Virus record (IMG/VR): IMGVR_UViG_3300043446_003177
Location: 108,233 to 172,232 of that record
Source: a virus
Strand: one strand, 5' to 3'
DNA: 64,000 nucleotides
Under the pieces are notes generated by a model. It worked only from the letters and a program-made list of their open reading frames with translations, searched no databases and was not told the DNA's origin. Below are positions 11,387 through 53,946 of this stretch, one piece after another. The translations under genes and the position numbers were made by a program. Numbering within the stretch: position 1 is the first letter of the stretch; every line of letters starts with the position of its first letter.

Positions 11387-11820
11387 AACTAATGAGCAAA
11401 AATTTTGATGAACTAAATGAGACGTTTAACGTCGAGAGTTCTATTGTCGAAACAGAAAAAGATGACTCCGCAATAAAACCTATTGAAGAAAATAGTAAAG
11501 TTGATGATATTCAAAAGGATTATGAATATACTAGAGGAAATTTATATTCTTTAATTGAAAAAGGACAAGAAGCTATAAATGGAATTTTAGAACTTGCTCA
11601 AGAAAGTGAAATGCCCAGAGCTTATGAAGTTGCTGGGCAATTAATAAAAAGTGTTGCTGATGCAACAGATAAATTAATGGACTTACAAAAGAAGTTAAAA
11701 GATATTGATGAAAGTAAATCCTCCAGAGGACCAACTACAGTAAATAATGCTCTTTTTGTAGGATCTACTGCGGATTTAGCAAAATTTTTAAAACAACAAT
11801 CGCAAAATGAAAACGTTTAA
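11383..11820 (+). CDS. gp16: Terminase small subunit gp16
   Basis: DYEYTRGNLY...PRAYEVAGQLIK...NNALFVGSTADL. Confidence 0.93.
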   Translation: MKLMSKNFDELNETFNVESSIVETEKDDSAIKPIEENSKVDDIQKDYEYTRGNLYSLIEKGQEAINGILELAQESEMPRAYEVAGQLIKSVADATDKLMDLQKKLKDIDESKSSRGPTTVNNALFVGSTADLAKFLKQQSQNENV

Positions 11821-11962: not shown

Positions 11963-13698
11963 TGCCCAAGATAAAGTCCCATAAAACAGTTGAACAAATT
12001 GCAAAGAAGCATCGCCTTGATGTTTCTTTCATACAGAAGCAACTTGATATGGGAGAACCCATTGAACATGAGCATACAAAAGATCATGAATTAGCGATGG
12101 ATATTGCTCTTCAACATCTTGATGAAATTCCAGATTATTATACTCGATTAAAAAAAATGGAGGCATCCGCCAAAAAAGAACATAAAAAATTTAAAGATGT
12201 TACTGAAGAGGGTCTTCGTGATTGGTTTGGAAAATCAAAATCAAAAGATGGAAAAGCGGGTTGGGTAAACGTTGTAACTGGCGGAACATGCGCTAGTGAT
12301 GAACCTGGAGAAGGAGTTCCAAAATGTGTCTCTTCTTCAAAAAGAGCGAGTATGACTCCAGCAGAAAGACGTTCTGCATCAAGAAGAAAAAAAGCGGCAG
12401 ATTCTGGACAACAAGAAAAATCTGGTGCTGCAAAACCAACCTATGTTTCTACAGATTCACCTAAAAAGAAAATGAAAGAAGAAATGGAAGTACAAGAAGA
12501 AAAAGATAAACCAAGTAAAGGTAGTGGTAAAAAAGATGCTTGCTATCATAAGGTAAAGGCAAGATATGATGTTTGGCCTAGTGCATATGCATCTGGTGCA
12601 TTGGTCAAATGTCGCAAAAAAGGTGCTGCAAATTGGGGTACAAAATCCGAAGCGGTAGAAGAAGAAAGATTTTGTCCATTATGCGATAAAAGGGAAAAAA
12701 GATCAGAATGTTCTTATGGGGAAGAAGCTTGGGATAAAGTATCAATTAAAGATCATGAATATTCTATGGCTAGATCAGAAATAAAGAACATTATTGATGC
12801 TGCTAAAAGACTTGAAAAGAAAGTAGCAAAAGGTGAAGGATCTCTGGAAGCTTGGGTACAATCAAAAATTACTAAGGCTGCAGACTACATTGATACTGCT
12901 GCAGATTATGTTGCAAGTGGAGAAATGGAAGAAGCATGTTGGACTGGATATAAGCAAGTGGGGATGAAAAAGAAAGGAAAAAAAATTGTTCCTAATTGTG
13001 TTCCAGCATCCGAAGAAAAACTAGTAGATAAAATTGTAAACGAAATTATTTCTGAAAAGCAAAATTCAAGTACAATTGAAGATGCAAATGGAAACAGTTT
13101 TGTTGAAGTAGTTAACTTGATTGAACCGGAACCAATCAAAGGATTTAAATCACAAATTGAAGAGGCAACACGTTTGCAGTCACAAACTGGAAATATAGTT
13201 GCAGTAACTATATCTTGGAGAGGAAAATATTATGCAATGCGTATGTTTTTCCCTCAGGCAAAAGTTCCATCAAGAAAAGAAATTAATGATGAGATTAAAA
13301 AAGTATATCCAAATTCTATAGTTGTTGCTCACTCAGTTTCCGAGTTTACTCCAGGACAACCCTTAATCCAAACTGGAGTTCAGGGTGGAAGTTACGGAAA
13401 TCCAGGTCCAAGCAAAAATTATGTAAAAACAATGGGTGAAGACTGGCAGTCAGTCAATCGCAAAGATAAAACTGATGGTCTCAGTCAAAAAGCTGTAAAT
13501 GCTTATCGTCGTGAGAATCCAGGTTCAAAACTTCAAACTGCAGTAACAGAAAAGAACCCAACAGGTAAAAGAGCATCTCGTCGCAAATCATTCTGCTCAA
13601 GGATGAGTGGTATGAAAAAAAGATTAACTTCCGCAAAAACTGCAAACGATCCAGATTCCAGAATCAACAAAGCCCTTCGTCGTTGGAACTGCAACTAA
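11962..13698 (+). CDS. Modular basic protein, probable internal head polyprotein (DUF5661-like N-terminal, DUF5872-like and DUF6321-like modules)
   Basis: Discrete Lys/Arg/Cys-rich modules separated by EE/xE motifs; lies in late operon. Confidence 0.7.
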   Translation: MPKIKSHKTVEQIAKKHRLDVSFIQKQLDMGEPIEHEHTKDHELAMDIALQHLDEIPDYYTRLKKMEASAKKEHKKFKDVTEEGLRDWFGKSKSKDGKAGWVNVVTGGTCASDEPGEGVPKCVSSSKRASMTPAERRSASRRKKAADSGQQEKSGAAKPTYVSTDSPKKKMKEEMEVQEEKDKPSKGSGKKDACYHKVKARYDVWPSAYASGALVKCRKKGAANWGTKSEAVEEERFCPLCDKREKRSECSYGEEAWDKVSIKDHEYSMARSEIKNIIDAAKRLEKKVAKGEGSLEAWVQSKITKAADYIDTAADYVASGEMEEACWTGYKQVGMKKKGKKIVPNCVPASEEKLVDKIVNEIISEKQNSSTIEDANGNSFVEVVNLIEPEPIKGFKSQIEEATRLQSQTGNIVAVTISWRGKYYAMRMFFPQAKVPSRKEINDEIKKVYPNSIVVAHSVSEFTPGQPLIQTGVQGGSYGNPGPSKNYVKTMGEDWQSVNRKDKTDGLSQKAVNAYRRENPGSKLQTAVTEKNPTGKRASRRKSFCSRMSGMKKRLTSAKTANDPDSRINKALRRWNCN

Positions 13699-14015
13699 TG
13701 AAATCATTCAATCAATTTCTATCAGAAGCTGTAAACATTGCCGGAGATTTTAACGGCAATCTATACATTAATAGTTCTGAAATGCAATCAGAACAGGTTA
13801 AAGAATCTTTTTTTGCTGATGTTGTATGGGAAGGGAGACTTTATCGCCTTGAAGTTGAAGGTAGCATGATGAATAAAACAGAACTAGCTGAACAACTTCA
13901 AGATCAATATCCAGGGGTAATTGTTCACAATATTTACCCACAACAACCATCAAGTTCATTAAAAATTAAAAATACGCAAAGATACCAACCAGAAAGATTG
14001 ACTTGGAGTGACTAA
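13698..14015 (+). CDS. Hypothetical protein starting MKSFNQFLSEA (capsid-targeting-like); paralog of a module of the upstream protein
   Basis: ATG at 13698 overlaps upstream TAA; WEGRLY...YPG similar to WRGKYY...YPN in upstream ORF. Confidence 0.75.
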   Translation: MKSFNQFLSEAVNIAGDFNGNLYINSSEMQSEQVKESFFADVVWEGRLYRLEVEGSMMNKTELAEQLQDQYPGVIVHNIYPQQPSSSLKIKNTQRYQPERLTWSD

Positions 14016-14017
14016 TT

Positions 14018-15349
14018 ATGGCTATTTGGAATAAAAATGATCAAGATTATCTAAATCAAGAACGATCTTTATTTGAAATTTTTGGTGTTGCAACTAGAGA
14101 CGGAAAAATTGTAGATAAATTTAACAGATTTCCAGTTGATGTTCTTCCAGCAAATGCAGATGCCTTTGGAAGAACTAGGGTATCAAATCCTCTCACACTT
14201 TTTGACTCTTCGCACAGATATAGAGACAATAATCTGTGGACAAATTTGATTGTAGGCACTGGTTCTACTGTTGGATTTGTGACTACACAGGGATTAATTA
14301 ATATTGGTATTGGAACTACTGCTGGTTGTTCTGTGATTAGAGAAACTACAAAGGTGTTTTCTTATCAACCAGGAAAGTCATTATTGATAATGAACACCTT
14401 TGTTCCTGAGACACCAAAAGCAAATCTAACACAAAGAGTTGGATATTTTGGTGCAGATAATGGTATCTACTTTGAGATTGCTGGAATTGGAAGCACTTCA
14501 ATCAGTTTTGTAGAAAGAAGTTTATCTATAGGAACAGAAACAAGAGTCCCACAAACAGAATGGAATATTGATAAATTAGATGGAACTGGTGTTTCTGGAA
14601 TTACTCTAGACCCATCTAAAGCACAAATTCTGTGGACTGATATTGAATGGTTAGGACTTGGAACCGTTAGAGTTGGATTTGTGATTGATGGTATATTCAT
14701 TCACTGCCATTCTTTCCATCACGCAAATAAAATTCAGTCAACATATATGACTACTGCGTGTTTGCCTTTGAGGTATGAGATTGCAAATACTGGAATAACC
14801 ACAAGTACAAGCACACTCAAACAAGTTTGTTCTACAGTGATTTCAGAAGGTGGTTATGAACTTCGTGGATTGCAACAAGGTGTGGGAACTACTATCACAT
14901 CTCCAGTAACTCTCGCAACAGCTGGAACCTATTATCCTATTATTTCATTAAGACTAAAAACATCCCCAAATAGATTAGATGCTATTGTAATTTTGACTGC
15001 TCTTTCCATTATGGGCATTACGAATAATGTTCATTATAACTGGAGAGTGCTTGCAAGTGCAGATACTACTGGTGGTGGAACTTGGGTCAGTGCTGGGGTT
15101 GATAGTTCCGTTGAATATAAGATTGATGGTGGAAGTGTGACTGGAGGTAGAATATTAGCAGAGGGATACAGTAGTGCATCTAATCAGGCAGTAACCGCAG
15201 TTGATATTCTCAAAGAAGCATTATTCAAATTCCAGTTAGAAAGAGATGGATTAACTGGAACTCCATATGAATTAACAGTTGTTGCTTCTGCTAGTTTAGC
15301 AAATGCTAGTATTCACGCTTCAATGGATTGGGAAGAAGTTAGTAGGTAA
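14018..15349 (+). CDS. Beta-rich putative virion structural protein
   Basis: DAFGRTRVSNPLTLFD motif, Thr/Gly-rich, late operon. Confidence 0.65.
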   Translation: MAIWNKNDQDYLNQERSLFEIFGVATRDGKIVDKFNRFPVDVLPANADAFGRTRVSNPLTLFDSSHRYRDNNLWTNLIVGTGSTVGFVTTQGLINIGIGTTAGCSVIRETTKVFSYQPGKSLLIMNTFVPETPKANLTQRVGYFGADNGIYFEIAGIGSTSISFVERSLSIGTETRVPQTEWNIDKLDGTGVSGITLDPSKAQILWTDIEWLGLGTVRVGFVIDGIFIHCHSFHHANKIQSTYMTTACLPLRYEIANTGITTSTSTLKQVCSTVISEGGYELRGLQQGVGTTITSPVTLATAGTYYPIISLRLKTSPNRLDAIVILTALSIMGITNNVHYNWRVLASADTTGGGTWVSAGVDSSVEYKIDGGSVTGGRILAEGYSSASNQAVTAVDILKEALFKFQLERDGLTGTPYELTVVASASLANASIHASMDWEEVSR

Positions 15350-22216: not shown

Positions 22217-22774
22217 ATGGCGCATAAACCAGTAGGTGCGGGAATTTCATTATCAACAACTGCCGTTTCAGCATTAACCACTTCATTTTCCGTTCAATCA
22301 AATGTTCTGAGAGTGACTGCAGTTAATGCTGGGGCATTTGTTGCAATTGGAACAAACCCAACCGCATCAATTACAGATTATTATATTCCTGCAGGAAAAT
22401 CAGAAACTCTTGCTTTAACAAAAGCATCACAAAGAGTTGCTGGTATAACAACCGGAACAACTACTATTATTGATTTTCCAGAAGGAACTCAAACTCCTTT
22501 TGTTGCTGGAGATTATGTTACCTTAACAGTCACTGGGCAATCTTATTACAATTTTACCCATGTTCCTGTTATTTCCGTAAATAATACTGCATCTTATGAT
22601 GGGTATTTTTCAAAGAGAATTGTCGTAGATTATAACTCAAGTGGTATTGTAACCGCATTTTCACCAACAACATCATATGCTGATTTGAGAGGATCTATCA
22701 GAGTTGCTGCTAGAACCGAAGGTGGATCTGGAACCGTTTATATTCAACAAGTACAAATTTCAGGACAAGCATAA
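22217..22774 (+). CDS. Putative virion structural protein (beta-rich)
   Basis: Late promoter 22181-22187; Thr/Ser/Val-rich; between portal and protease. Confidence 0.65.
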   Translation: MAHKPVGAGISLSTTAVSALTTSFSVQSNVLRVTAVNAGAFVAIGTNPTASITDYYIPAGKSETLALTKASQRVAGITTGTTTIIDFPEGTQTPFVAGDYVTLTVTGQSYYNFTHVPVISVNNTASYDGYFSKRIVVDYNSSGIVTAFSPTTSYADLRGSIRVAARTEGGSGTVYIQQVQISGQA

Positions 22775-23424
22775 TGAAACTTATTACCGAAGAAATCGAA
22801 TCAGTAGAAGTTCTTACCGAAACGGTCAACGGTAAGAAGACTCTTTATATCCAAGGACCTTTCCTTCAAACTGAAGTTGTAAACAGAAACGGTAGAATGT
22901 ATCGTTTACCTGTTATGGAAAGAGAGGTAAAGCGTTACACTGAACAATATGTAAATAAGGGTCGTGCTCTTGGAGAGCTTGGACACCCTGATGGTCCTAC
23001 TGTAAATCTAGATCGAGTCTCCCATAAAATTGTTTCACTTCACCGCGAAGGAAATAATTTTATTGGTAAGGCGCAAATCCTCTCAACTCCAATGGGAAAA
23101 ATTGCAGAGTCACTTTTAAAAGAAGGAGTTACTCTTGGCGTTTCCTCTCGTGGTATTGGTTCAGTCAAATCTACTCGTGAAGGTTTTACTGAAGTTGGCG
23201 AAGATTTCATGCTAGCAACTGCTGCTGATATCGTTGCCGATCCTTCTGCTCCTGACGCTTTTGTTCAGGGAATCATGGAAGGAAAGGAATGGGTTTGGGA
23301 AGGTGGAATGCTCAGAGAAAGAGCAGCACAAAAAACTTATAAGAGAATTAATACTCTTGTAGACCAAAAACGTCTGGAAGAGCATAAATTGAATCTATTC
23401 AATGAGTTTTTAAACTCATTGTAA
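22774..23424 (+). CDS. gp21: Prohead core protease gp21
   Basis: ALGELGHP, GVSSRGIGS, DIVADPSAPDAFV. Confidence 0.97.
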   Translation: MKLITEEIESVEVLTETVNGKKTLYIQGPFLQTEVVNRNGRMYRLPVMEREVKRYTEQYVNKGRALGELGHPDGPTVNLDRVSHKIVSLHREGNNFIGKAQILSTPMGKIAESLLKEGVTLGVSSRGIGSVKSTREGFTEVGEDFMLATAADIVADPSAPDAFVQGIMEGKEWVWEGGMLRERAAQKTYKRINTLVDQKRLEEHKLNLFNEFLNSL

Positions 23425-33781: not shown

Positions 33782-33896
33782 AAAGGAACAGAAGCGGAAA
33801 CTGAAACCGCAAGCACTTCGACAAGCAAAGGCACGTCGCCAAGCACTCAAGAAGCGTCTCAACTCTAGAGACGCTTCTTTTTTTATAAATAACTAA
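33750..33896 (+). CDS. Small highly basic protein (MTTPNWQHHSKKEQKRKLKPQALRQAKARRQALKKRLNSRDASFFINN)
   Basis: ATG at 33750 within track ORF 33711; Lys/Arg-rich. Confidence 0.65.
   Translation: MTTPNWQHHSKKEQKRKLKPQALRQAKARRQALKKRLNSRDASFFINN
33849..33884 (+). terminator. Intrinsic terminator inside the 3' end of the basic ORF, abutting late promoter TATAAATA (33884-33891)
   Basis: 12-bp stem AAGAAGCGTCTC/GAGACGCTTCTT plus T-run. Confidence 0.75.
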
Positions 33897-33911
33897 AAAG
33901 TGTTTATAAAA

Positions 33912-35105
33912 ATGGATTCAAAAGAACTTCGCAATTTATACGAAGCGTATAATCAAGTTTATCAGATTGATGAAATTTCTGCTGATCTTGCATTGAAGGC
34001 AAGTAAGGAGGCAGATATTAAAAGAGGTAAACTTGCTCATGCTGGTGATAAAGCAGGTGCTGCTGCTAAAGCAGCACAAGCCTCGCGTCTTTATAAAGCG
34101 CAAGCAGCAAAGAGACTGAATAGAGAAGAGTTTGAACTTTGGGTAAATTCTCTTGTAGAAGAAGGTTATGACCTTTCTGACTACACTTGGGATGAAATGT
34201 ATGAGTTTTATCTTGGTGAAGCAATCACTAGCGAAAAGGGTAAAGCAAAAGCAGCAGAAATGATTGCTAAGCGCACTACTGCTTCTGGTAGAGCAAAACC
34301 AGGACAAGGTGATAATGTTGCTACAATCAAGCACATTAGTCGTTCTAATAGAGACGGACTTCTGGGAACTCCCCCTAATCGTAAAGTAGCAGGTTCCAAT
34401 TGGCCAAAATCATATACTGGAATTGGGGGAACTGGAAACAAAGCAGCAAGAAGAGCAGCAGCACTCAAGAAAGAAGAAGTTGATATCTTTGATATTGTTC
34501 TTGAGTTCCTCCAAGTAGAAGGATATGCAGAAACTCTTGAAGAAGCAGAGTGGATAATGGCAAATCTAATTGATGATGAAGCGATTGAAATTATCCTTGG
34601 CGAATCTGCACTTGGAACTATGGCTGTTCTGGGTGGTATGGCGGCAGGTCGTGCTATTCATGGCAAACTGCAAGATAGAAAAGCAAAAAAAGAATATGAA
34701 GCAAAGAAAAGAACTAGTGATTATTTGATCATGAAAGACAGAACTAAAGATGCTGTTGCTAGAGATAGATCTTCTAGTGGTGATACGAGGAAAGAAGAAT
34801 TTGAAGCATGGTTTGATGCAATTCTTGAAGCACGTAGAGCTGATAAAGAAGGTTATGAAAGAGGTAGTGCAGCAAACCCTAAGAGAAAAGATATTCCTCA
34901 TGGAGATCCTTCTCAAAGATCAATGCTGCACTCCAAACTGAAGAGACGTGCTGATGAAATGGGAAGAGAAAGAAGAAGTTCTTCTGCATATAAAGCAGGC
35001 AGCCGTCCTCCTGTTTCTAAAAAAGAAAAGGCATTTTTGCAAGCAGCAGATAGAACTAGACAAAGTATTAGAAATCCAAATGTTCCCAACACTGGAAAGC
35101 ACTGA
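33912..35105 (+). CDS. Late modular protein with alternating acidic helical spacers and basic segments (putative internal head protein)
   Basis: Late promoter; modules EEFELWVNSLVEEGYDLSDYTW and EEVDIFDIVLEFLQVEGYAET. Confidence 0.65.
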   Translation: MDSKELRNLYEAYNQVYQIDEISADLALKASKEADIKRGKLAHAGDKAGAAAKAAQASRLYKAQAAKRLNREEFELWVNSLVEEGYDLSDYTWDEMYEFYLGEAITSEKGKAKAAEMIAKRTTASGRAKPGQGDNVATIKHISRSNRDGLLGTPPNRKVAGSNWPKSYTGIGGTGNKAARRAAALKKEEVDIFDIVLEFLQVEGYAETLEEAEWIMANLIDDEAIEIILGESALGTMAVLGGMAAGRAIHGKLQDRKAKKEYEAKKRTSDYLIMKDRTKDAVARDRSSSGDTRKEEFEAWFDAILEARRADKEGYERGSAANPKRKDIPHGDPSQRSMLHSKLKRRADEMGRERRSSSAYKAGSRPPVSKKEKAFLQAADRTRQSIRNPNVPNTGKH

Positions 35106-37333: not shown

Positions 37334-37349
37334 ATAAATACTCAAAAGA

Positions 37350-38477
37350 GTGCCTATAAAGATGCAACTTCCAGAAGAACTTCTTGATGAGAGAACCCTG
37401 ATGAAAATGAAAGGATCCAAGAAATCAGGCACTATGCCTATTCCTGGATCCGAAGGTGCTGCACGAAAAGATGTTGCTCGTGCTGGATTTAGAAAAAAGG
37501 GTCCAATTCAAGATCCTAAAGTTGAGAAAAGTGGAAAAGATGTTCCTGTTTGGGTAAGAACTCATAAATCTCCTGCTGATTATGCTGCTCATACAGCAAA
37601 GCAAAAACATAAAGAAGGTGAAAAAACTGATACTAAAGAATTAAGAAAACAGTTTCATAAAACTGGAGCTAAAAAAGATAGTGAAGTTCATGATATTACT
37701 GTAGGATCCCCCAAATCAAAAGTAAAAGATCCTGGGCAAAGGGCAAGACAATTTGTCGGTGCTTTAAAAGATGTTAAAGATAAAATGAAGGAAAAGAAAG
37801 GAGTTGCTACAAATACTCCAACTGCTATTGATTCCACTAAAACAAAAAATAAAAAAAATAGAAGTGGGGAAGAAGGTGCAGAGCAAAGAGGTAGAATTTA
37901 TAAGAAACTCGGAATGGGCGAAAGAAATCCAAAGACAGGAGTACAAATGGCAAAATTAGGAGAATGCAAGTCTTTCAGTCAGTTCATGTTAGAGTGTAAT
38001 TCTATTCAAGAAACATCTCTGAACAGAATTAGATCTAAGTCGGAAAAAGGCGGAATGGCTATCATGTCTGCTCAACGTGGTGATAAATCTAAGTCAGAAA
38101 ATAAAGCACGTTCTAAGCAACTTGAGAAGGATGTGAGGGGCGCTGGTCTTCCCGGACCCACCAAAGTTAAAGGTAGATATACTGAAAATCCAGGAACACC
38201 TCAAGAGAAAAAAGTAGGAGAAAAGTCCCACGTCATTACTCCTGGTAAGAAAGGCAAAAGAAAGTTTAAAAAGGCAATCGAAAAATTAGGTAAGAAGTAT
38301 GATCAAGACTCTGTTCTCATCCAACGTAAGAAGGGTGGGAGTGCAACTCTTAAAGGAACATCAAAAACATCTTGGCCTGGAAAGGGAAAGAATGTTAAAA
38401 TTGGTAAAATGAAACCTGGACGTACAGGTGAGTTTGATACTAAGGTAAAAAACAAAACATTTACAGTTGAGGATTGA
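37350..38477 (+). CDS. Late two-module basic protein; C-terminal domain resembles phage SAM lyase (T3 gp0.3 / DUF3293-like)
   Basis: ATAAATA at 37334-37340; motifs SAQR, EN..R, GRYTE, GEKS, YDQDSVL. Confidence 0.6.
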   Translation: MPIKMQLPEELLDERTLMKMKGSKKSGTMPIPGSEGAARKDVARAGFRKKGPIQDPKVEKSGKDVPVWVRTHKSPADYAAHTAKQKHKEGEKTDTKELRKQFHKTGAKKDSEVHDITVGSPKSKVKDPGQRARQFVGALKDVKDKMKEKKGVATNTPTAIDSTKTKNKKNRSGEEGAEQRGRIYKKLGMGERNPKTGVQMAKLGECKSFSQFMLECNSIQETSLNRIRSKSEKGGMAIMSAQRGDKSKSENKARSKQLEKDVRGAGLPGPTKVKGRYTENPGTPQEKKVGEKSHVITPGKKGKRKFKKAIEKLGKKYDQDSVLIQRKKGGSATLKGTSKTSWPGKGKNVKIGKMKPGRTGEFDTKVKNKTFTVED

Positions 38478-38478
38478 G

Positions 38479-38673
38479 ATGGCAAAAAAACTTGATAAAT
38501 TTCCATTTGATCATGTAGTAAAATATGATACTCAAGAAGTATGGATTAAGTGCAGCAGTGTTACTACTGCTATGGGACTTCCTACACTTGTAAATCAATA
38601 TTATCCTGGGTATAAAGCAAAGATTGGGACACAGGAGCAACTTGACCAACTTCGCAACCAGTTGGTGAACTGA
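38479..38673 (+). CDS. Small hypothetical protein
   Basis: MAKKLDKFPFDHVV...; fills gap. Confidence 0.65.
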   Translation: MAKKLDKFPFDHVVKYDTQEVWIKCSSVTTAMGLPTLVNQYYPGYKAKIGTQEQLDQLRNQLVN

Positions 38674-38679
38674 CCATTC

Positions 38680-38701
38680 GGGGGGTTCTGCCCCCCTTTT
38701 T
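38680..38701 (+). terminator. Intrinsic terminator followed by a -10 box (TATAAT 38707-38712)
   Basis: GGGGGG-TTCTG-CCCCCC plus T5. Confidence 0.7.
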
Positions 38702-44216: not shown

Positions 44217-44651
44217 ATGACTAACCTTTCGCGCTATACGACTGCAGATCTTCCTACTCTGCTCGATAAGATCACTCGCAATAGTATTGGAATGGATGAA
44301 TACTTTGACCGTCTTTTCCATCTACACGAAACCACTACGAATTATCCACCATATAATCTTGTCCAAGTCAGTAATGTGGAATCACGACTTGAACTTGCTC
44401 TTGCTGGATTTAAGAAGAAGGAGGTTTATGTCTACACGCAAGATGGTAAACTCTTTGTCGAAGGTCAAAAAGAAGATAAAGAAACGGAGTCCAACTATGT
44501 CCACAAAGGTTTGGCTCAACGGAGTTTTAAGAGAGCGTGGACACTCTCTGATGATACGGAAGTACGATCAGTTGATTTTGAGGATGGGCTTTTAACTATT
44601 ACTCTTGGTAGGATTGTGCCGGAACATCACAAACGAAAAGACTATCTATAA
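44217..44651 (+). CDS. hsp20: Small heat shock protein Hsp20
   Basis: NYPPYNL, LELALAGF, HKGLAQRSFKRAWTL, FEDGLLTI. Confidence 0.96.
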   Translation: MTNLSRYTTADLPTLLDKITRNSIGMDEYFDRLFHLHETTTNYPPYNLVQVSNVESRLELALAGFKKKEVYVYTQDGKLFVEGQKEDKETESNYVHKGLAQRSFKRAWTLSDDTEVRSVDFEDGLLTITLGRIVPEHHKRKDYL

Positions 44652-44665
44652 ATAAAAATAAAAAA

Positions 44666-44821
44666 ATGAAAACGTTTCGGGAATTTATTTCTATAATAAA
44701 TGAAATGAAAGGTGATTTTGGTTCGGATGTAAAACCACCAAAACCAAAATGTTATGGTAAAACTACAACATATGCTATGCTTCCCGGAAAACGTGTTTGT
44801 AAATTTAAACGTAAAAGATAA
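44666..44821 (+). CDS. 51-aa late basic peptide with capsid-targeting-like N-terminus (MKTFREFISIINEMKGDFGSDVKPPKPKCYGKTTTYAMLPGKRVCKFKRKR), not in track
   Basis: TATAAATA 44647-44654 directly upstream. Confidence 0.7.
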   Translation: MKTFREFISIINEMKGDFGSDVKPPKPKCYGKTTTYAMLPGKRVCKFKRKR

Positions 44822-52701: not shown

Positions 52702-53946
52702 ATGAAAAGTTTTTCACGATTTTTATCTGAGGCGCAGTCTTCTCAAGCCGTAATGCAAGCAAAAAGGCTTGGTTTGGTTGGTGATGGTCATGGTGGGTGG
52801 TACGATAAAAATGGTGAATTTGTTGCAAAAACTGAAGGTAGTAAATTAAAGTTTTATAATAAGAATCAAGTTCCTGGGCAGCAAGATCCTCCTCAAGATA
52901 GAACTGCTGCTAATCAACAACCAGTTGCAACTCAGGTTCAAGCACCACAGCAAGAACAACCACCTGCAGAAGAACCAAAGAAAGATAAAGGAATTCTAAC
53001 CGTTGCTTTTGGGCGTTTTAATCCTCCAACAACAGGGCATGAGAAACTTCTAGATAAAGTTGCTAATGTTGCTGGAAAGGGTGAATACAAAATTTATCCA
53101 TCAAGATCTAACGATAAGAAAAAGAATCCACTAGATCCTGATACTAAAATTTCAATCATGCGTCAGATGTATCCGAAGCATGGTGAAAGAATTGTGAATG
53201 ATGCAAACTCAAAGACAATCTTTGATGTATTGAAGCAAGCACATGCAGATGGATATTCTGGAGTTAATATTGTAGTTGGTTCTGATCGTCAAGCAGAATT
53301 TGAAAAACTTGCAACTCAGTATAACGGCGAACTCTATGATTTTAAGGATTTGAATGTAGTTTCTGCTGGAGAAAGAGATCCTGATGCTGAGGGTGTGGAA
53401 GGAATGTCTGCATCCAAACTCCGCAAGGCAGCAGCAGAAGGAGACTTTAAAACATTTAGGTCAGGAGTTCCTTCCACACTTGATGATGAATCTGCAAAGA
53501 AAATATACAATACCATCCGCAAATCTATGGGTGTTAAAGAAGGATGGGACTTGTGGGAAATTGCCCCTAAATTTGATTGGAAGAATTTGAGAGAGAATTA
53601 TATCTCTCAGAATATATTTAAGATGGGGCAACTAGTTGAAAATTTAAATACGGGTCTTATTGGGAAGATAATTCGTAGAGGAACAAATTATTTAATTTGT
53701 GTAACTGAAGATAATATAATGTTTAAATCTTGGATTAAAGATGTAATGGAATATACTGAAGTTAAAATGGATACTCCAATGAGAGATAAAAAACATCCAA
53801 ATACGTTGGTTGGTACTCTAGGTGCATTTAAGCATTATGCAAAAATGACTACTGGTGCAATAGGAACTGGAAAAGAAAATCTGACTTCAAGTTCAAAGGC
53901 GTATGGTATTAATTTCATAAATAAGTATAAGGCAAATAAGAAGTAA
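52702..53946 (+). CDS. Cytidyltransferase-like (HIGH-family) nucleotidyltransferase with capsid-targeting-like N-terminus
   Basis: FGRFNPPTTGHEKL, VVGSDR, MSASKLR; ATAAATA 52675-52681. Confidence 0.88.
   Translation: MKSFSRFLSEAQSSQAVMQAKRLGLVGDGHGGWYDKNGEFVAKTEGSKLKFYNKNQVPGQQDPPQDRTAANQQPVATQVQAPQQEQPPAEEPKKDKGILTVAFGRFNPPTTGHEKLLDKVANVAGKGEYKIYPSRSNDKKKNPLDPDTKISIMRQMYPKHGERIVNDANSKTIFDVLKQAHADGYSGVNIVVGSDRQAEFEKLATQYNGELYDFKDLNVVSAGERDPDAEGVEGMSASKLRKAAAEGDFKTFRSGVPSTLDDESAKKIYNTIRKSMGVKEGWDLWEIAPKFDWKNLRENYISQNIFKMGQLVENLNTGLIGKIIRRGTNYLICVTEDNIMFKSWIKDVMEYTEVKMDTPMRDKKHPNTLVGTLGAFKHYAKMTTGAIGTGKENLTSSSKAYGINFINKYKANKK

Follow-up and report, generated by a model that had tools for sequence, protein, structure and literature searches.

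A putative internal head protein precursor with an S-adenosylmethionine lyase family domain in a T4-like cyanophage

The S-adenosylmethionine (SAM) lyase of phage T3 is a pre-early product that counters BREX as well as restriction-modification of type I (PMC11680406). In Svi3-3, another SAM lyase, residues Gly56, Tyr58, Glu69, Ser71, Gln104, Glu105 and Ser106 bind and orient SAM (Guo et al. 2021, PMC7877911), and the E69Q substitution almost abolishes activity (PMC7877911); SAM lyases are trimers, with active sites located between the subunits (PMC7877911). In this study, a gene for a protein with a domain of this family (positions 37362 to 38477, plus strand) was analysed in a 64,000-nucleotide stretch of viral DNA, hereafter the window, which is the final 64 kb of the 172,232-bp IMG/VR virus record IMGVR_UViG_3300043446_003177. 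The source phage is a T4-like, Kyanoviridae-like cyanophage, the nearest isolates being Synechococcus and Prochlorococcus myoviruses of the Kyanoviridae. Residues 218-371 of the gene product are a SAM lyase family domain by sequence and fold. The whole product is probably, with a chance of roughly two in three, a precursor made late, from which two internal head proteins destined for packaging derive; it would be cut by the prohead protease gp21 and ejected with the genome, the lyase then cleaving SAM of the host.

In the 1990s and 2000s, polymorphic internal proteins with a conserved, shared capsid-targeting sequence (CTS) were described for T-even coliphages. The CTS of T4, MKTYQEFIAE, has approximately 10 residues, brings the internal proteins into the prohead and is removed by a single cleavage; the T4 internal proteins are highly basic (bioRxiv 10.1101/2021.01.19.427310). 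Cleavage by protease gp21 occurs after L/I-X-E, and many of the proteins that it processes are later ejected into the host (PMC9026906). In the T4-like cyanophage S-CREM2, the product of open reading frame (ORF) 6, named 'SAM hydrolase (virion protein)', was found by mass spectrometry in virions purified on CsCl (19 peptides, 26.3% coverage; Front Microbiol 2023, PMC10665884). The authors proposed that this protein enters the host with the DNA and protects against restriction-modification (PMC10665884). That a T4-like cyanophage carries a SAM lyase in its virions is an idea already published, and because the S-CREM2 paper reported both the virion detection and the proposed entry, the core idea considered here is not wholly new.

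An earlier note, made from the nucleotide sequence alone, had placed a SAM lyase-like domain in the 3′ part of the gene by comparing short motifs with those of the T3 enzyme. All of the strings quoted for it (KSFSQFMLE..IQE, AIMSAQR, SENKARSKQL, VKGRYTE, GEKSHVI, LGKKYDQDSVLI and GEFDTKVKNKTF) are present in the translation of 37350-38474. The domain boundary, set at 38013 directly after IQE, is the codon of T218, next to E217; here and below, residues are numbered from ATG 37362 unless numbering from GTG 37350 is stated. The Pfam family PF23780 (S-AdoMet_lyase) was matched far beyond chance, at 59.4 bits (cut-off 28) and E=4.6e-16, the match covering residues 238-361 (GTG numbering) and 113 of the 133 profile positions; the genome copy scored 62.6 bits against this profile.

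An exhaustive search of 1.84 billion cluster representatives retrieved 944 related clusters, and conservation was assessed in an alignment of 55 family members with identity down to 33%. In this alignment, R239, N247, E287 and Q315 were invariant, and G271, Y273, S289, D316 and S317 were conserved in at least 90% of the sequences. The 55-member profile found exactly two proteins among the PDB sequences, the T3 SAM lyase (7ock/8bb1, E=1.4e-4) and Svi3-3 (6zm9, E=0.16). When the whole protein was used as a single phmmer query against PDB, only chance matches to ribosomal proteins were obtained, and the family profile was needed. The match to 7ock/8bb1 showed that the T3 motifs had been given correctly and in the proposed register (LVSAFR, VNMSRHRHM, TGCYRE, EEKTVRV and EWEQDCVLV). 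Residues G271/Y273, E287/S289 and Q315/D316/S317 align with G56/Y58, E69/S71 and Q104/E105/S106 of Svi3-3.

The AlphaFold2 model of the domain had a predicted local distance difference test score (pLDDT) of 80.8 and a predicted template modelling score (pTM) of 0.75. Its best Foldseek match in PDB was the T3 SAM lyase (8bb1_E) with E=5e-6 and template modelling (TM) scores of 0.64/0.70. Ranks 1 to 7 were all chains of T3 SAM lyase (8bb1, 7ock) or Svi3-3 (6zm9/6znb), the next matches having E>0.03 and TM of approximately 0.3. The structural comparison with T3 SAM lyase and Svi3-3, proposed in the earlier note as the way to refute the domain, thus gave a clear match to solved SAM lyases. These results, namely the family match, the T3-like fold and the retained ligand residues, confirm the assignment. 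By analogy to the solved enzymes, the domain would cleave SAM to methylthioadenosine and homoserine lactone.

The gene had also been taken to be expressed late. A late-promoter-like motif, (G)ATAAATA (NATAAATA), is present on the plus strand at 37334 to 37340, where it had been reported, with G in front; it lies 22 nt before ATG 37362, in the 28-nt gap after the stop codon of the upstream gene. The window contains 26 copies of ATAAATA, 25 of them on the coding (plus) strand, and for 16 of these 25 the ATG of a gene follows within 60 nt, compared with 6.3% expected (binomial p=7e-14). Known late genes are among those with such a site in front, and sites of this kind precede the sheath, portal, scaffold and tail-tube-like genes. 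In phages DSL-LC02, S-H34, S-CREM2 and P-TIM68, the motif is found approximately 28-30 nt upstream of the homologous genes, the S-CREM2 lyase gene carrying TATAAATA at -28. The distance in P-TIM68 is that from a corrected start: the annotated start of AIR93461.1 (L004:2983-3498), MIMPQTMKTYKEFIQDIQE, is probably six codons early, and moving it to MKTYKEFIQDIQE gives a canonical leader with ATAAATA approximately 28 nt upstream, as in the other phages. The position of the motif lends indirect support to late synthesis, at the time of head assembly.

The precursor has 371 residues, a mass of 40.9 kDa and an isoelectric point (pI) of 10.2. Its reading frame can also be read from GTG 37350; however, ATG 37362 is most likely the true start, because the gene call in the database (P0006) and the close homologues of full length, which open with M-x-[FL]-x-E-E-[IL]-L-D-E-R-T-L-M, start there. 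Four parts were distinguished, all on the plus strand. The N-terminal leader MQLPEELLDE (37362 to 37391) has 10 residues ending in L-x-E and would be a variant CTS, with a first gp21 site predicted at E10|R11. A basic N-terminal module (N-module; 37392 to 37967, residues 11-202, approximately 22 kDa) without recognised family follows. The internal junction KSFSQFMLE|CNSIQE|T (37968 to 38012) consists of a CTS-like motif, K203-SFSQFMLE211, which is a good match, then C-N-S-I-Q-E217 with the second [LI]-x-E; gp21 sites are predicted in it. The SAM lyase domain PF23780 (38013 to 38474, T218-D371, 16.9 kDa) completes the protein. Both halves are very basic, with pI 10.1 for the N-module and 10.4-10.45 for the lyase and a net charge of +26 each; the K+R content is 27.5%.

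The leader was compared within the family. Most of the listed close homologues lacking the N-module open with MK[TS][YF]x[EQ]FxxE, examples being MKTYREFIAE, MKTYKEFMQE and MRTYQEFITE. A strict leader pattern was passed by 37 of 148 family representatives (50%-identity clusters), and [LIVMYF]-x-E was found directly before the conserved domain start S-S-L-S-R in 105 of the 148. In the 55-sequence alignment, the P3 position before the domain was L, I or V in all 49 non-gap rows, and P1 was E in 52 of 53. As for the leader of the window protein itself, 63 of 72 N-module homologues retain its L-D-E with RTLM after it, and some homologues have the canonical T4-like MKTFEEFLDE|A (AREL) where MQLPEELLDE stands.

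Variable linkers of approximately 70-240 residues separate leader and enzyme in many proteins of the family. Judged from these comparisons, the leader is a module separable from the enzyme, since the linkers vary and the leader is present, too, at the start of some N-module proteins and of four other window ORFs. The four are at 11807 (MKTFKEFQEE), 13698-14015 (MKSFNQFLSE), 44666 (MKTFREFISIINE) and 52702-53946 (MKSFSRFLSE); those at 44666 and 52702 directly follow (T)ATAAATA at 44647 and 52675. By their leaders, these ORFs are candidates for further packaged proteins.

The protease that would act on such sites is encoded in the window. A gp21-type prohead serine protease (22774 to 23424, plus strand; Pfam PF03420 Peptidase_S77, E=1.6e-36) is flanked by the genes for portal gp20 (Portal_T4), scaffold gp22 (T4_CASP) and major capsid protein gp23 (Gp23). 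The proposal of the earlier note that the protein is late, capsid-targeted, released by gp21 and delivered from the virion is supported indirectly by the promoter motif, the Peptidase_S77 gene, the leaders of the homologues and the virion detection in S-CREM2; for the window phage, we infer packaging, cleavage, ejection, enzyme activity and the target defences.

The following course of events is proposed. The gene at 37362-38477 would be transcribed late from the NATAAATA promoter, and one or more CTS-like leaders would carry the precursor into the assembling prohead core. There, the S77 protease of the phage would cut after L-D-E10 and, at the junction, after M-L-E211, I-Q-E217 or both. The predicted products, a basic N-module of approximately 22 kDa and a basic SAM lyase of approximately 17 kDa, would both be kept in the head with the DNA and both be ejected with the genome at the next infection. 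Ahead of phage gene expression, the lyase would split SAM into methylthioadenosine and homoserine lactone, and the loss of SAM would starve SAM-dependent defences (type I/III restriction-modification and BREX) and host methylation.

The N-module had 72 homologues with 72% mean column identity, and sequence and profile searches of Pfam, PHROG and PDB gave nothing for it. Its AlphaFold2 model had a pLDDT of 60.6, with approximately 70-80 in the core. Foldseek against PDB gave nothing under E=0.1, and an ESM Atlas feature search returned only unannotated viral clusters. Structural neighbours obtained with VIA-align and an ESM Atlas shape search were mostly GNAT acetyltransferases (Z up to 7.0, TM up to 0.5), the top match being the anti-CRISPR AcrVA5 with Z 7.0 and a root-mean-square deviation of 2.9 over 92 residues (Atlas TM 0.4-0.5). 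The fold is possibly GNAT-like, which we regard as a lead only; the N-module is a candidate carrier or second packaged protein.

Wherever the N-module is fused, it is joined through G-K-T-F-x-x-F-x-x-E to one of at least nine unrelated classes of C-terminal cargo. The SAM lyase is the cargo in 9 of 58 cargo-bearing N-module proteins. The commonest cargo (29 of 58) is a His-rich domain with HHITPIHHS...HGHHPKNL or DHIQPLQRK...PGHNSDNL, seen in P0019, P0022, P0031, P0036, P0039 and relatives, all metagenomic; by eye it recalls HNH nucleases, with no match in Pfam. Pfam likewise gave nothing significant for eight other C-terminal cargos, nor for the extensions that the S-H34 and S-CREM2 proteins have at their C-termini. 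In Synechococcus phage DSL-LC02, the N-module stands alone (WJZ48347.1, L001:4995-5621) and ends in a CTS-like remnant, ...FNEFMSMIYE* (ITFNEFMSMIYE, then stop). This remnant suggests either the loss of a cargo or a role of leader-coding DNA as recombination joint.

In a syntenic relative with the order gp46, a 742-residue peptidase-like gene, lyase, small ORF, CobS-like, DUF3310 and gp45, the lyase gene consists of leader, a linker of approximately 70 residues and lyase; P-TIM68 has a lyase at the matching locus. From this arrangement, two internal-protein genes seem to have been fused in frame, with the leader as the joint, to give the window gene. The fusion is genuine and recurrent and not an assembly artefact, because the same N-module-lyase architecture occurs in independent metagenomic clusters at 92, 91, 87, 67 and 56% identity.

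Several observations weigh against a packaged, gp21-cut and ejected precursor. At the N-terminus, MQLPEELLDE is of the correct length and closes with L-D-E, yet it matches the T4 CTS loosely and the good match is internal. The [LI]-x-E before the domain sits in the first predicted helix, and could therefore be conserved for folding and not for cleavage. The frequency of ATAAATA in the window is that expected by chance (26 found, 25.5 expected), only its placement being non-random. In S-H34 and S-CREM2 (L002, L003), a gene for Dam methylase, which needs SAM, lies one small ORF upstream of the lyase gene. Finally, the S-CREM2 authors warned that abundant late proteins may co-purify with virions (PMC10665884).

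The last point bears on the possibility that the protein is a late, cytoplasmic and unpackaged SAM lyase, which would shut down SAM-dependent host processes or recycle SAM to methylthioadenosine and homoserine, the leaders having another role and the S-CREM2 detection being carry-over. Co-purification was raised by those authors themselves, and the late-promoter motif alone is uninformative on packaging. This possibility is nevertheless unlikely. The homologues carry a leader that is nearly identical to the T4 CTS as defined by experiment and that occurs on unrelated proteins too, and both halves of the window protein are extremely basic. It also conflicts with the genes that the phage carries for SAM metabolism: upstream of the window, the same genome (G000:C1:41711-43371 and 14819-15133) encodes MetK (SAM synthetase), AhcY (S-adenosylhomocysteine hydrolase) and SpeD (SAM decarboxylase). 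A free lyase in the late cytoplasm would oppose the phage's own use of SAM, which would fit sequestration of the enzyme in the head. The five related phage records checked (DSL-LC02, S-H34, S-CREM2, P-TIM68 and Slickus01) lack metK, so that the co-occurrence of metK and lyase is not general.

The gene neighbourhood in S-H34 and S-CREM2 pairs a SAM consumer (Dam) with a SAM destroyer (lyase). In the genome studied here, a stretch at G000:C1:77494-77679 gave a weak match to the Dam-type profile PF02086, just under the cut-off (21.6 bits, 22 being required), and a 329-residue open frame there contains one in-frame TGA; this stretch may be a broken or divergent methylase gene.

The second explanation keeps the enzyme but dispenses with the internal cut. 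In this case a single two-domain effector of approximately 40 kDa, uncleaved or trimmed only at the N-terminus, would be packaged and injected, and the N-module would work together with the lyase as a targeting or second enzymatic domain. The joining of the N-module to at least nine cargo classes is as expected of a carrier domain, and the P3 residue of the first junction site is Met and not the canonical L or I. Against this, the junction repeats in full the CTS and cleavage motif with which other family members begin; I-Q-E, its second site, has the canonical form, and almost all sequences have [LIV]-x-E there. A 22-kDa N-terminal appendage might moreover hinder the trimer with its intersubunit active sites (PMC7877911). 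An uncut effector is thus improbable, and cleavage into two packaged proteins is preferred.

Thirdly, the protein could be packaged but non-catalytic, being either a basic DNA-condensing internal protein or one that mainly binds and inhibits the host MetK, as the T3 SAM lyase also does. The lysine content is very high, as reflected in the K+R content given above; the best structural matches, 8bb1 and 7ock, are T3 SAM lyase solved in complex with MetK; and a phage metK could bypass an inhibited host enzyme. However, the positions holding SAM in Svi3-3 show no or almost no variation across the family, which is unexpected for a structural or DNA-binding protein, and in T3 the binding of MetK would supplement catalysis and not replace it. 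A loss of catalysis is thus very unlikely. The earlier note had allowed that the lysine-rich domain might be a degenerate DNA-binding derivative, and this reading is disfavoured because the ligand-binding residues are conserved. By analogy to the basic T4 internal proteins, the high lysine content would be better explained by residence in a DNA-filled head than by lost enzyme function.

The PHROG matches of the lyase part were unlabelled or methyltransferase-labelled only, but a SAM-dependent methyltransferase, as suggested by the annotation of the second-best PHROG family (phrog_2226, 'SAM-dependent methyltransferase', residues 238-358, E=9.8e-11), has next to no chance of being correct, given that Pfam assigns S-AdoMet_lyase to the same stretch and that the solved structures at E up to approximately 0.005 are SAM lyases only, with no methyltransferase among the matches listed. 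The label was rejected, and phrog_2226 is most likely a mis-annotated SAM lyase family.

Other features around the gene are as follows. A small ORF of 64 residues (38479 to 38673, plus strand) starts 1 nt past the lyase stop codon, inside the same terminator-bounded unit. This unit ends after the one small ORF at an intrinsic-terminator-like hairpin followed by a T-tract (GGGGGGTTCTGCCCCCC; 38680 to 38701, plus strand), the strong hairpin occupying 38680-38696. A 61-residue ORF occupies the matching position after the lyase gene in a syntenic metagenomic contig, and the 64-residue ORF showed no homology to the small ORFs after the gene in P-TIM68, S-H34, S-CREM2 and DSL-LC02. The product of 38479-38673 was considered as a cognate inhibitor or immunity protein; this idea was dropped because the ORFs at that position in the four isolates are from unrelated families. 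Further genes of the window are those for the gp45 sliding clamp and for CobS-like and CobT/peptidase-like proteins.

The region 33884-35105 contains a K/A/R-rich ORF of 397 residues (ATG 33912), behind a terminator and TATAAATA. Its start, MDSKELRNLYEAYNQV, resembles an extra leader, MDAQELRNLQEAYMEVVENQ, that precedes some N-module proteins (P0042, P0050, P0053 and P0062), and its PHROG matches are only to families without an assigned function. This ORF may represent another targeting leader or packaged protein.

A more general scheme, which is tentative and somewhat doubtful as a whole, would be that marine T4-like phages have modular, polymorphic internal proteins, in which a T4-type leader, often with the 22-kDa carrier module (possibly GNAT-like), delivers swappable cargos through the capsid. 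The leader would double as internal protease site and perhaps as recombination joint. Cargos may include the SAM lyase, the His-rich HHITPIHH domain recalling HNH nucleases and at least seven other unannotated classes. The injected lyase would empty the SAM pool at entry, with MetK, AhcY and SpeD rebuilding and using SAM later; if true, a central metabolite would be under timed 'destroy, then replace' control. SAM lyases are known from T3-like phages as anti-restriction and anti-BREX enzymes with early expression. A lyase made in advance, stored in the capsid and injected would act before phage transcription and so close the interval left to SAM-dependent defences. Hundreds of marine phage proteins carry the T4 CTS in almost unaltered form. 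Should it function alike in these, T4 protein delivery would be ancient and widely used in the most abundant myoviruses of the ocean, and a simple sequence rule would be at hand for finding injected phage effectors in metagenomes. With the SAM-synthesis genes and the lyase in one phage, timed manipulation of host SAM is directly testable.

In the literature searched, outside which most subscription journals lie, no link of SAM lyases to the T4 CTS or to internal proteins was found. The T4-like leader, the two-cargo fusion and the presence of metK, ahcY and speD in the same genome were found unreported in that literature. The S-CREM2 paper does not use the terms 'internal protein' and 'gp6', and its section on virion proteins is silent on a targeting leader and on protease processing (PMC10665884).

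The T4 proteins IPI, IPII, IPIII and Alt are basic, carry the CTS MKTYQEFIAE, are cut by gp21 after L/I-X-E, kept in the head and ejected, IPI* acting in anti-restriction. However, none of the T4 internal proteins is a SAM lyase or holds two cargos split by an internal CTS, and they share no sequence similarity with the window protein past the leader. The lyase domain of S-CREM2 ORF6, from a T4-like cyanophage as well, is orthologous and 52% identical, and the protein begins with the CTS-like MKDFDSFLEE. The S-CREM2 lyase occupies the N-terminal position, ahead of a C-terminal extension of approximately 240 residues, whereas that of the window protein is C-terminal, behind the N-module and the internal CTS-like junction. 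Svi3-3 (6zm9, 6zmg, 6znb) shares the fold and the ligand residues; it is a stand-alone, leaderless enzyme and a weaker match than T3 (profile E=0.16, TM 0.37-0.50). The T3 SAM lyase (gp0.3, SAMase; 7ock, 8bb1) falls into the same Pfam family, gives the best structural match and has the same motif order and Tyr, Glu and Gln positions, and its chemistry and anti-defence purpose are presumably alike. Unlike the T3 enzyme, the window lyase is fused to a basic 22-kDa module and is far more basic, the identity in the Foldseek alignment being approximately 12-16%. The T3 enzyme is made pre-early, after entry of the DNA, whereas the window gene lies behind a late-promoter motif and encodes capsid-targeting and gp21-site motifs.

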